This document shows positions 28,588 to 59,964 of a DNA stretch of 64,000 bases, piece by piece. Source of the stretch: Haliotis rubra (taxonomy: Eukaryota). Each line of letters begins with the position of its first letter. Position 1 is the stretch's first letter. Position numbers and translations under genes: made by a program. The stretch lies in NCBI RefSeq assembly GCF_003918875.1, contig NW_025765914.1, forward strand, positions 496,001 through 560,000, written 5' to 3'. The notes beneath the pieces were generated by a model. It was given only the letters and a program-made list of their open reading frames with translations, was not told the origin of the DNA and did no database searches.

Positions 28588-31500
28588 CTAGCAAGAAACT
28601 TCGCTTTCATCCAAGACTGTGACAGCCAGGCGACCCAAGAGCTTGGCTTCTTCTGCTGAGCAATCAGGTACCTCTGCCACACGTTTTCTGATGCAAGTCG
28701 GCACACTAATAAAGAGACAAAACGTTCTGGATTACGGTANNNNNNNNNNNNNNNNNNNNNNNNNNNNNNNNNNNNNNNNNNNNNNNNNNNNNNNNNNNNN
28801 NNNNNNNNNNNNNNNNNNNNNNNNNNNNNNNNNNNNNNNNNNNNNNNNNNNNNNNNNNNNNNNNNNNNNNNNNNNNNNNNNNNNNNNNNNNNNNNNNNNN
28901 NNNNNNNNNNNNNNNGGCAGATGGACAGAGTCTGCTAACCACGCAGCACTGTTCCGCGTCGCTTGCAATTGATTTTTCAGTTGAGGCATACCGAATATTT
29001 TAACTTCATATAAGCTTGATTAGTGTTGAAAAAACGGCGGAGGACATCAGGATACATATTGTACCTATGAGAGGCATGGAACACGGGTCTTCGACGTGAC
29101 GAGCGAACGCTCTAACCACTAGGCTATCCCACCACCCATATGTTTCGAAACACATAGAGTGAGAACACAATAACAAGATAATACCGATATCAACATATAC
29201 ACGTAAAAGTATGAGATAAAATATAGTTACCACTGGATATACGGATGAAGGCACCCACGGATCGTTGTCGTGAGGTTCGAGCTTCTCCAGCAGTCTTCCC
29301 CCGATACAAATGCTGAAATGGTTGAATACAATTACCGACGAAATGTTGGCGAGTGTTTATCGTATTCACACACATCAAATAGTAAACATGATAACCGGTG
29401 AGAATATTTGTTGAGAATATCATCTGCTGAGATCCCTACATAATCAACCCGCAAGCAAACCTACCCGTGTTTAAGTACATACATTCATAGTTTTCATGAC
29501 AATTATAGTAGCGTTGACACTGTGATTTTACCGACCAGTCAAGCTCCTAAAAGTGCATAAAAACAGCAATAAGCCGTTTCTCGAAAGAGGGGAAAGTTTA
29601 TATAACCATCACAAACACAATCACACGACACAGAGAAGAGCGATCTACATAACCATTGCCACATAATCTTCCTGGACATCCAAGTAAAGAGATCTACATA
29701 CTATCCTCTGATGTATACCCTCCACTGACACCCAAGTAAAGAGATCTACATATTACCCTTATGTATACTCTCCAATGACACCCAAATAAAGAGATCTACA
29801 TATTACCCTCTTATGTATACCCTCCACTGACACCCAAGTAAAGAGATCTACATATTACCCTCTTATGTATACTCTCCAATGACACCAAGTAAAGAGATCT
29901 ACATATTACCCTCTTATGTATACTCTCCAATGGCACCAAGTAAAGAGATCTACATATTACCCTCTGATGTATACTCTCCAATGACACCAAGTAAAGAGAT
30001 CTACATACTACCCTCTGATGTATACTCTCCAATGACACCAAGTAAAGAGATCTACATATTACCCTCTTATGTATACTCTCCAATGACGCCCACGTGTATA
30101 GAGAGCTCAGTAGCCAGTCTTAAACATGCCGCGACTGAATCTGTAGCAACGTGCACACGCTCTGGGACTCCTTGAAGCCGGTATTTCACAAAATGTTGTT
30201 GCTAGGCGCCTTAATGTCAACCAGTCCACCATTAGCCGTCTTGTCAGTCGTCACCAGAAGACAGGGACCGTTGCCGACCGCCCTCGACCAGGGCGACTTC
30301 CGGTTACAAAGGCCAGATAAGATCGACAGATGCGACTGGCGCACCTTCGAGTTCGCTTCAGAACGGCAACAGCAAGAGCAGCAGCAACGATTGGTAGCCA
30401 TGGAAGAAGGATCCACCCATTGACAGTCATTCGACGCCTGAGACAGGCCGGACTGAACTGTCGACGTCCATACCGTGGCCCTGTGCTTCAGCCCCGTCAC
30501 CGCCAAGCCCGACGTCAATTCGCACGGCAGTATGCGCAACAACAACCACTTTTCTTCCGTAGGCTTGTCTTTTCAGACGAGTCACGGTATTTGTGGATGG
30601 AAGAGATCCTGTTTCCAGACGTCGTGGGGATCGTTATGCAGGCCCATGTGTCAGACAGAGATATAGAATTGGTGGTGATAGCGTAATGGTTTGGGGGACC
30701 ATCTACGCATGTTTCAGGAGTGATCTGACTGCACAGCGTTATGTGGATGAAGTCCTGAGGCCCGTAGTGGTTGCTTTGCTGCGCCGTCACCAACGCCCTC
30801 GACGTCCACTACCATTCCAACATGACAACGCCCGTCCTCATGCCGCCAGGGTGACACAAGCATTCATTCAGCAAGCTGGACTTAATGTGATGGACTGGCC
30901 AGCGTATTCACCAGATCTCAACCCTACTGAGCATGTGTGGGATGAACTGGGGAGACGTGTTTATCGACGTCAGCCACCGCAAGCCAACGTCGCAGCTCTC
31001 ACACTGGCCTTGCAGCAAGAATGGAGGAACATTCCCATGGCCTTCATTGCTCGCCTCTGTGACTCATTGCCCCATCGTCTCAATGCCTGCGTCAGGGCGA
31101 ATGGAGGACAAACAAGATACTGACAGTGTTTAAAGGGGTGACCTTGTTTGACCTTATCTGTTCCACTCGCATTTGCTGATATCCAACTTTTTCAAAACCA
31201 TAATCATTGCTAATTACCCATGTCATAAACTGAAAATGATTTTACATCTAAACCTTTGTTTTTGTCACTTTATTCCACATCAAAATCAGTTATGCGTTTT
31301 CATTGCGGGTCAGTATAATTTTATATCTCGCATGACACCCAAGTAATAGGTCTATGTGACCATTGGCACATAATTTTCCATGACACCCAAGTAAAGAGAT
31401 CGACGTATATACTAGTACCTCTAATGCATTATCGTGCATGACACCCAAGTAACGAGACCTACAAGACCACTGGCACGTAATCTTCCATGACACCCAAGAG

Positions 31501-58600: not shown

Positions 58601-59964
58601 GACAGTACAAGCGTTCCATCCCTTGGCGAATTAAAAAAGAGAGCAATGTTACTCAAACAAATTACTTCGATCTTAACTACGGTTCACGATTCTGTCAAAT
58701 CAGTCACTCCCGCCTCCGACTTGGTTGCAGCGATCTCAACGCCGACATATTTAATATATGTATAGCTGAGAGACCAATGTGTAACTGTGGCTACCATGCT
58801 GAAGACAATCTGAATTATTTCTTTGTCTACCCCGACAAGATTTGTATTACTTTGAAAAAGGGTTTGATTTAAAATCTTTTCTTTATGGTCATTCCAGCTC
58901 AAACTTAAAAACGAATATGGAAATGTTGAAATCAGTGGGCAGTTTCATACTTTTATCAGGTAGATTTCCTGCTTTTGTAAAATAATAAGAAACACATAAC
59001 TCCATAATTTCGCAAAGATATGAAACATAATTACATGATTTTGCCATATACCTTTTAATATACTACCATAATTTGATTGACATGTGACTATAATTGCTAT
59101 ATTGATTACACTTGCCAACAACACTCACATGATTATTTTATGATGTCACCACAATTATATTTTCTTCTCTCTGTGTTGTACAGGAGAGGTGTTTGCATAA
59201 GCCCTGGGCTTGTAGACCGGTCCTCATTACTTGTTTTTCGAAATAAAATATGTTTAAACTACTTCAATAACATCGTTTACAAACATGCTACGGGTGTTAC
59301 TGTTTCTAGTTTAGTTACAAGTTCATTGATGAATAGGATAAATAAGAAGGGGGTCAACATACATCTTTGTCTAACACCACTAGATATCGTTTTGACACAA
59401 GCGCAATGGTAGTCATACACAATGATAAGTCACACAACTGAGAGCTTACTTACTCGCACGGTACAGCGAGCCTCCCATCAACAACAAGGCCTTCCAAACC
59501 CCCTGTGGCATGGAGAGGACTGAGGTTTTCCAGACAGGGATCGAGCTGCGCATAGCAAACATTTTCAACACCTACTGCAACGCTTGTCACGTTTACTATG
59601 TTCTCCTCACTATTTTGCCGGCGCTGTGCCTCATGTCCATCATTGGGAAACAGAGCTAGAGATAGAAATATAGCATTTTATTTAAAACCTGTTTTTAATA
59701 ACGAGGTTTTAGGTCATTACGCTTCGCATCCTCACTTTGATATTATGTTCGCCTGTTGTAATAGATACTTTGTGAGGAGGTCATTCATATTACTATAACC
59801 GTCTTAAAGGAGTATCTCAAGTCTATTGATTTCAGATTGTGGTCAGTCAGTAAATACATTGAGAAAACAATGAACTCGAGAATGTGAAACTTCTTAACAA
59901 AGTACTCACCAAATGAAAAACATATTGCTGGCAGATACAGAAGGAAGACAACTCGTCCAAACAT
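55308..59964 (-). CDS. G6: intact secreted 12-Cys protein, 194 aa, 5 exons
   Basis: Exons 59964-59910, 59655-59454, 57490-57366, 56824-56740 and 55425-55308 total 585 nt: MFGRVVFLLYLPAICFSFALFPNDGHEAQRRQNSEENIVNVTSVAVGVENVCYAQLDPCLENLSPLHATGGLEGLVVDGRLAVPCESNIREESWNCIDSLSHCRDNGLYKAIRSSQMSWDFICQNSQAFVAGKDCWISSEFHPTFLKCLGRSNNVCVPTCLQKAVAKMPDCSTEDAILLGLLAGISLPGDHASC*. Confidence 0.88.
55515..55600. repeat. (GA)n microsatellite in G6 intron 4
   Basis: Interrupted GA runs seen directly. Confidence 0.95.
57655..57896 (-). mobile_element. SINE family B in G6 intron 2
   Basis: Homologous to 27617-27860; (TCAC)n tail. Confidence 0.78.
58200..58950 (+). mobile_element. CR1/L2-type LINE 3' fragment in G6 intron 2
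   Basis: FYKM..PPYL, SFLP, HSRLRLGCSDLNAD..CNCG..ED..YFF motifs. Confidence 0.75.

Follow-up and report, generated by a model that had tools for sequence, protein, structure and literature searches.

The DNA analyzed here, called the window, is a stretch of 64,000 nucleotides from the abalone Haliotis rubra (RefSeq contig NW_025765914.1, positions 496,001 to 560,000; G000:C1024:496001-560000), and all positions without the prefix G000 refer to it. It contains six genes of five exons each (G1-G6), arranged in tandem on the minus strand. The best reading of the array is a family of secreted binding proteins that evolves by birth and death and whose surfaces differ from copy to copy. The products are predicted to be secreted helical proteins with 12 cysteines (Cys), whose mature parts diverged after duplication under moderate positive selection, and each copy likely binds an extracellular partner of its own; this reading as a whole was judged somewhat probable. 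An earlier note had described the region between the G6 ATG (59964) and the end of G4 exon 5 (28588) as toxin- or effector-like, with a frozen signal and pro-region and hypervariable segments. The quoted features were located there on the minus strand and the observation was confirmed; the toxin reading was not supported, and diversifying selection was found at moderate strength. The outcome that had been set beforehand as a refutation, dN/dS (omega) at or below 1 at all sites together with no greater divergence in exons than in introns, did not occur.

Array and predicted proteins

Twelve close copies of the gene were found over 142 kb (G000:C1024:465916-608266): the six in the window, Z and Y on one side of it, and D, C, B, and A on the other. 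Exons of remote paralogs were located at both array ends (439-452 kb and 619-657 kb of G000:C1024). The six copies counted in the earlier note are thus part of an array that reaches beyond the window, and two of them are out of frame (G2 in exon 2 and G3 in exon 3). In this assembly, half of the 12 copies are intact (Z, Y, G1, G4, G5, and G6), and their spliced products are stored proteins labelled "uncharacterized protein, Haliotis rubra". The other six (G2, G3, D, C, B, and A) are broken in the same assembly. Exon 1 of D is interrupted by about 1.7 kb; C has exon 1 out of frame and a stop in exon 3; exon 3 of B is out of frame and its exon 5 was not found; and the start of exon 2 of A was not recognizable.

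The G4 product has 191 residues, and the family proteins have about 190. Exon 1 (39068..39122, minus strand, as all exons below) carries 18 codons for a predicted signal peptide, and the spliced product is identical to the stored protein P0001. After this hydrophobic N-terminus of 18 residues, which was judged a signal peptide from the sequence itself, comes a stretch of 13 residues that closes with Arg-Arg and is followed by Gln32. Exon 2 (32611..32806) encodes the propeptide, the Arg-Arg-Gln (RRQ) site, a sequon-bearing linker, helix 1, the VVDG-LAV hairpin, and Cys1-3; the RRQ codons (32766..32774) mark a predicted convertase site, where cleavage would occur. Exon 3 (31683..31807) covers the conserved helix 2, a variable linker, the start of helix 3, the W-F-CQ motif, and Cys4-6. 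Exon 4 (29231..29312) holds Cys7-8, with the Cys9 codon split by the intron, and exon 5 (28588..28705) holds Cys10-12, the variable tail, and the stop. Each of the 15 stored core-type proteins covering the propeptide end has RRQ, and a sequon follows it in most copies. KR or RR was found at a similar place in remote homologs of the P0019, P0020, P0021, and P0030 types, and not in the P0018 type.

All 12 Cys were invariant in 14 proteins, and the chains end at the twelfth (Cys191 in G4). The mature chains have 149-163 residues and are acidic in six of six cases (K+R 7-13, D+E 17-23). AF2 gave an all-helical model for residues 51-180 (block pLDDT 83-95), and residues 46-124 folded alone gave a three-helix bundle (pLDDT 86). 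The model thus predicts an N-terminal three-helix bundle with six Cys (approximately residues 49-122), followed by a second helical part with the other six.

Over the six window copies, 4 of 18 exon 1 residues vary (positions 3, 4, 6, and 18), and the motifs QRRQN, VVDG[RK]LAV, and W[DE]F[IL]CQ were counted six times each, once per copy, all as the earlier note had stated. The variable segments that it had named "C1-C3" are present (starting at 32714, 48188, and 59557), but the label does not fit: they run from Cys1 past Cys2 and end 13 residues before Cys3. In G4 this variable helix-1 segment spans codons 50-70 (32652..32714). Conservation of the pro-region holds for residues 19-32 (omega 0.33) but not for residues 33-49, which are variable with indels. 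Both exon 4 (82, 85, or 91 nt) and exon 5 (103, 118, or 121 nt) differ in length as claimed, although within the window exon 5 has 118 nt in G4, G5, and G6 and differs only in G2 and G3.

Evidence on positive selection and the history of the copies

Selection was analyzed with GY94 site models on seven genes (the six intact ones and exons 2-5 of D; 193 of 197 codon columns). Model M8 placed 29% of sites at omega 2.15, and twice the log-likelihood difference (2dL) was 23.9 for M7/M8, 20.4 for M8a/M8, and 19.6 for M1a/M2a. The value was 14.7 after removal of columns near gaps (142 codons left), 15.7 without gene D, 6.8 on G1, G4, G5, and G6 alone, and 9.2 on the 112 mature codons only; the signal and pro codons alone gave no signal of omega above 1 (2dL 0.0). 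When each exon had its own tree, 2dL was 6.7, 7.2, 3.1, and 1.0 (sum 17.9, 5 degrees of freedom). The omega>1 signal was kept under F61 or equal codon frequencies and with double substitutions (2dL 5.5-19.3); M8 fitted no better when double substitutions were allowed. The cleaner test was that on the mature part only: none of 46 nulls with one tree, and 1 of 92 with exon-wise trees, attained the observed M1a/M2a value of 8.73. The diversifying selection proposed in the earlier note therefore stands for part of the mature region, at moderate strength (omega about 2; p about 0.02-0.05 with exon-wise-tree nulls).

Maximum-likelihood omega was 0.28 in the signal, 0.33 in the propeptide, 0.60 in the linker (5 codons), and 0.94 in the mature part, and about one third of the mature sites are strongly constrained. 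Along the chain, block means alternate (1.58, 0.66, 1.58, 0.71, 1.60, 1.02, and 1.79). The four high-omega blocks are residues 51-72 (mean 1.58), 102-116, 138-154, and 180-190 (1.6-1.8), and residues 73-97 (0.66) and 117-137 (0.71) are conserved. The variation exceeds chance, as the high-omega sites come in blocks (lag-1 autocorrelation 0.36, matched by 0 of 5000 shuffles).

Several results weigh against positive selection. The site models were run in our own Python implementation, not PAML, with naive empirical Bayes. Taken singly, neither exon 4 (p 0.08) nor exon 5 (p 0.33) was significant. In a whole-gene null with an own tree and rate for each exon block, 2 of 58 simulations reached the observed 14.3 and 32 of 58 exceeded the nominal 5% mark; the nominal p values are thus too small, because rate differences and mosaic ancestry inflate the whole-gene test. 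The mean mature omega of 0.94, or 0.72 by NG86, is of a size that relaxed constraint can give, and periodicity of the high-omega sites on helical faces was not significant in any of the seven helices (p 0.11-0.42). The comparison with introns counts on both sides. In close pairs the divergence of mature coding DNA equals or exceeds that of introns despite the strongly constrained third of sites, which favors positive selection, but the excess is uneven. Only seven closer pairs were compared, because the blastn intron distance saturates at about 0.3 for distant pairs. The ratio of mature coding to intron distance was 1.23, 1.48, 1.32, 1.02, 0.95, 1.37, and 1.42 (Fisher p <0.01 in 3 of 7), with no exon excess in G3-G4 (1.02) and G1-G2 (0.95). 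These pairs are not independent of one another, all but one of the seven involve a broken copy, and the two with the greatest distance approach the saturation limit. For the first variable segment (60 nt after Cys1, offset by 2 nt from codons 51-70) the ratio to introns was 0.94-2.15.

The H. asinina core proteins pair with one H. rubra gene each (7 of 7, bootstrap 91-100), which places most of the variety in old paralog divergence that was then kept. The partner of the broken G3, P0002, is intact, and no partner of G2, G5, Z, D, or A was present among the H. asinina proteins found. Identity at mature non-Cys positions was 390/517 in four intact ortholog pairs vs 799/1935 in 15 pairs of paralogs. 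In five ortholog pairs, the amino-acid distance of the mature part was 0.47 before the species split and 0.26 after it, that of the signal peptide 0.04 and 0.18, and that of the propeptide 0.01 and 0.12. The signal is therefore not "frozen" between species, where its Poisson distance (0.18) is almost as large as the mature one (0.26), although old paralogs have nearly identical signals. Array orthologs are 70-83% identical; two remote family members are 91% and 76% identical between the same two species, and the array thus does not clearly outpace all of its kin.

A profile search of 1.84 billion representatives returned eight proteins at E ≤0.001, seven of them labelled Haliotis (H. rubra, H. 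asinina, and H. cracherodii, with H. rufescens among cluster members). The eighth, P0020 (E 2e-5), has no Haliotis label. It is a homolog of 245 residues that has all 12 Cys, together with dibasic sites and a propeptide rich in Asp. Word-index searches returned Haliotis proteins only, and in four Haliotis species the family is annotated only as "uncharacterized". No description of the family, and no paper matching the gene identifiers, was found in the literature searched, which mostly excluded subscription papers; supplements of abalone transcriptome or proteome studies may list the genes.

In the binding-protein reading, a convertase would cut off the propeptide between RR and Q, the new N-terminal Gln would cyclize to pyroglutamate, and the linker would be N-glycosylated. 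The fold would be held by the Cys, the VVDG-LAV hairpin, helix 2, and the W-F-CQ/AF-G motifs, and four stretches would make up the changeable binding faces: helix 1, the linker between helices 2 and 3 along with the first part of helix 3, residues 138-154, and the tail. The variable sites may thus form a binding surface, as the earlier note had proposed. New copies may arise by unequal crossing-over, after which some specialize and are kept across species and others decay, and the 5' block is probably both exchanged between copies by conversion and conserved by selection. In our view, the likeliest class of partner would be a non-self or environmental protein, as in host defence. The evolutionary pattern itself (conserved signal, fixed Cys, diversifying mature part, tandem birth and death) is already well known. 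What the abalone family adds is a group of tractable, soluble proteins from a farmed species. Because it comprises 1:1 orthologs as well as intact and broken copies, roles in defence, reproduction, or growth-factor binding can be addressed directly.

Alternative explanations and known families

Relaxed constraint combined with gene conversion, in which the disulfide scaffold alone is kept, everything else drifts, conversion homogenizes the 5' block, and the omega>1 class is an artefact, is rather unlikely. The mean mature omega, the broken half of the copies, and the inflation under the exon-wise null fit it, as does a set of exon-specific histories. Synonymous divergence is 0.76 in the signal (exon 1) vs 1.46 in the mature part (p 0.036). 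Exon trees conflict, with G1 and G4 joined in the 5' part (bootstrap 94) and G1 and G5 in exon 4 (89); the Kimura two-parameter distance (K2P) between G1 and G4 rises from 0.02 in exon 1 to 0.57-0.58 in exons 4-5, and G1, G3, and G4 combine a near-identical 5' block with very different exons 4-5. The low exon 1 divergence, the conserved 5' untranslated region (UTR), and this shared block suggest that, in addition to purifying selection, the 5' part has undergone conversion or is of mosaic origin. Against relaxed constraint stand the mature-only test that survived the exon-wise null, the block-wise variation, and the copy-specific residues, which even at the highest-omega sites are shared at 52/83 between orthologs vs 23/310 between paralogs. 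G2 seems to be mosaic as well: its introns 3-4 align at length with G5 introns (10480-12330 vs 44855-47200), and its exons are nearest to G1.

It is very unlikely that the proteins are toxins or antimicrobial effectors of the conotoxin or defensin type, engaged in an ongoing arms race. Abalone are grazers and are not known to have a venom organ. Conotoxin precursors show position-specific conservation of Cys codons, and in the array 6 of 12 mature Cys codons were invariant (seven genes). Defensins and cationic antimicrobial peptides have a short, cationic mature peptide with a beta-sheet or CS-alpha-beta fold; the array chains are long, acidic in 6 of 6, and predicted to be helical. No toxin or defensin was matched in Pfam, in PDB sequences, or among the eight profile matches. 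The array does share with conotoxins and mussel CRP-I the signal-pro-mature precursor with a conserved signal and a dibasic site, the fixed Cys, the positively selected variable mature region, and the clustered genes with pseudogenes (for CRP-I, the precursor layout, fixed Cys, variable mature part, and clustered pseudogenes are described in PMC10138031), but this pattern is generic to secreted gene families. Apart from chain length, charge, and fold, the array is unlike them in its moderate selection (omega about 2), in the 1:1 orthologs, in the lack of homology found, and in its exon/intron ratios of 0.95-1.48 (seven pairs, approximately 1-1.5), whereas conotoxin mature exons are about three times as divergent as their flanks according to PMC10561478. 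Reproductive or chemical-signal proteins (gamete recognition, a mucus cue), comparable to the lysin/sp18 array of the same genus, are a quite unlikely explanation. That array likewise consists of tandem, positively selected, secreted paralogs (PMC9022041), and the modest ortholog identity between the two species would fit. On the other side, no lysin or sp18 match was found in Pfam or PDB, the array proteins have 12 Cys, and most of the divergence lies between copies and predates the species split. Selection is also weaker than in sp18 (omega 4.2 on 48% of sites), and PMC9022041 reports no pseudogenes in the acrosomal family vs 6 of 12 copies broken here.

Soluble traps for TGF-beta-family ligands are also an unlikely reading. 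It holds that the N-terminal bundle is remotely related to the N-domain of RGM (PF06535; RGMA, RGMB, hemojuvelin) and that the free, convertase-matured copies specialized on BMP, Nodal, or activin-type ligands, with positive selection acting on RGM's BMP face. The lead arose from Cys spacing, ahead of the search. The predicted bundle shares with RGM-N three helices and six similarly spaced Cys (6-25-10-6-19 in the array vs 4-22-8-7-21 in abalone RGM-N), and Tyr or Phe stands at +6 after Cys5 in 16 of 16 array proteins. RGMB-N ranked first of 350,542 chains in Foldseek (E 1.5, prob 0.38, TM 0.43/0.48) and again at ranks 11-12, and the score of the family profile on abalone RGM-N was exceeded by only 14 of 1000 Cys-preserving shuffles. 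Binding by RGM runs through helix 3 and the linker that joins it to helix 2 (PMC7354924), and this region is a high-omega block in the array. Modelled together with an abalone BMP2/4 dimer, G4 46-191 gave a predicted complex that lends weak support (0.54 vs 0.00 for the best of three controls): the runs shared at least 85% of contacts with partner pLDDT at least 73, but the score may reflect likeness to solved complexes. In calibration, 51 of 78 solved pairs and 2 of 108 mismatched ones passed the mark, but the pairs passing at 0.60 or under included only 5 of those 78 and all 4 passing mismatches. The array also differs from RGM: no score was significant, a second six-Cys helical part is predicted to follow, and the genes are multi-copy and fast-evolving. 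The Gly of the RGD/RGN loop and the following Leu, which have a role in RGM (PMC7354924), are each absent from the helix 2-3 linker in 16 of 16 array proteins.

RGM proteins have GDPH autocleavage, a vWF-D-like domain, and a GPI anchor. GDPH is absent from the array proteins, whose chain ends at Cys191 without a vWF-D-like domain or GPI tail. If the ligand-trap reading were true, DUF19/CPG4-like invertebrate proteins would be tied to the RGM fold and given a first function, and a signalling-ligand binder would be seen to evolve like a toxin family; if both the RGM-N link and BMP-family binding held, a broad unannotated group of invertebrate secreted proteins would gain both fold and function. 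Elsewhere in the assembly, five near-identical genes with a TGF-beta domain stand in tandem about 4.2 kb apart (G000:C1009:76675-93763, L027-L031); they look Nodal-like by their motifs, and a sixth relative lies on C2204.

For the secreted binding proteins proposed here, the nearest named clusters in a language-model search were DUF19 (PF01579, T20D4.11-like), CPG4, and DUF1397, both for P0001 (DUF19 0.88, 185/256 features) and for the remote homolog P0020 (0.89). The Atlas scores for DUF19/CPG4 (0.83-0.89) are leads only, as they lie below the mark of 0.9, and P0001 and P0020 count as one source of evidence. DUF19, CPG4 (PF15481), and DUF1397 (PF07165) are secreted and Cys-rich like the array proteins, and DUF19/CPG4 also share with them the predicted secretion, a length of 140-220 residues, and multi-gene organization. 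In Pfam, no family reached its cut-off for 14 full proteins, and no score of these families in the array came near it; the best was CPG4 for one exon (16.1 bits vs a cut-off of 32.7). No credible match was found among PDB sequences. DUF19 forms a large secreted family in C. elegans, in which 14 of 51 genes are up on infection (PMC3534327). This response was counted in favor of the binding-protein reading, DUF19 being the nearest named lead.

Other features of the window

G5 (44385..48915, minus strand; exons 48861-48915, 48085-48280, 46896-47023, 45477-45561, and 44385-44502) is intact and equals the stored protein P0011 from the second ATG. G6 (55308..59964, minus strand; exons 59910-59964, 59454-59655, 57366-57490, 56740-56824, and 55308-55425) is likewise intact and equals P0009 from the second ATG. 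G1 is intact, with exons 1-3 at 450..2639 (minus strand) and exons 4-5 left of the window in L005; its spliced product is identical to P0004 from the second ATG. The two broken copies are G3 (19245..22797, minus strand), in which exon 3 (20675-20798, 124 nt) is out of frame in this assembly, and G2 (9455..13670, minus strand), in which exon 2 (13036-13230, 195 nt) is out of frame with a stop. Intron 4 of gene Z has a GC donor (G000:C1024:467843, L003). A second subfamily of the P0030 type, with 8-10 Cys and about five copies, lies on both array flanks (G000:C1024:439700-451900 and 619400-657300; L017, L001, L011, L018-L021).

A conserved 5' block with a TATA-like box and the 5' UTR stands ahead of the G6 ATG (59965..60034, minus strand), and the same block precedes each copy (mean K2P 0.24, nine copies). 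The 80-nt UTR is 85% identical across the six intact genes. The TATA-like box was seen before the ATG in most copies and not in G5 (48960-48985), the expression of which may differ. In sequencing run X12, one contig spans 32609-32806 (G4 exon 2) and continues with other letters past the splice site, and another spans 28486-28705 (G4 exon 5), followed by 51 other letters. Contigs that match G4 up to these splice sites give a weak hint of a spliced transcript; the RNA status of this single study is a guess, and its organism label differs from that of the best match to the DNA.

Several repeats were also observed. G4 intron 3 contains Tc1/mariner remnants (30300-31125), and G4 intron 1 contains a 1.8-kb tandem-duplicated element of Tc1 type with copies 97-98% identical (35400-38500), both types being judged from translations. 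Open reading frames at 60900-62630 resemble what we take to be a decayed DIRS-type retroelement with a reverse-transcriptase piece. Minisatellites lie in or beside the genes at 49200-50500 (23-25 nt), 45600-46600 (50 nt), 47150-47700 (41 nt), and 29630-30140 (51 nt). Short interspersed repeats of very high copy number were located at 22050-22225, 27610-27815, and 29054-29137, one of them with a tRNA-like end.

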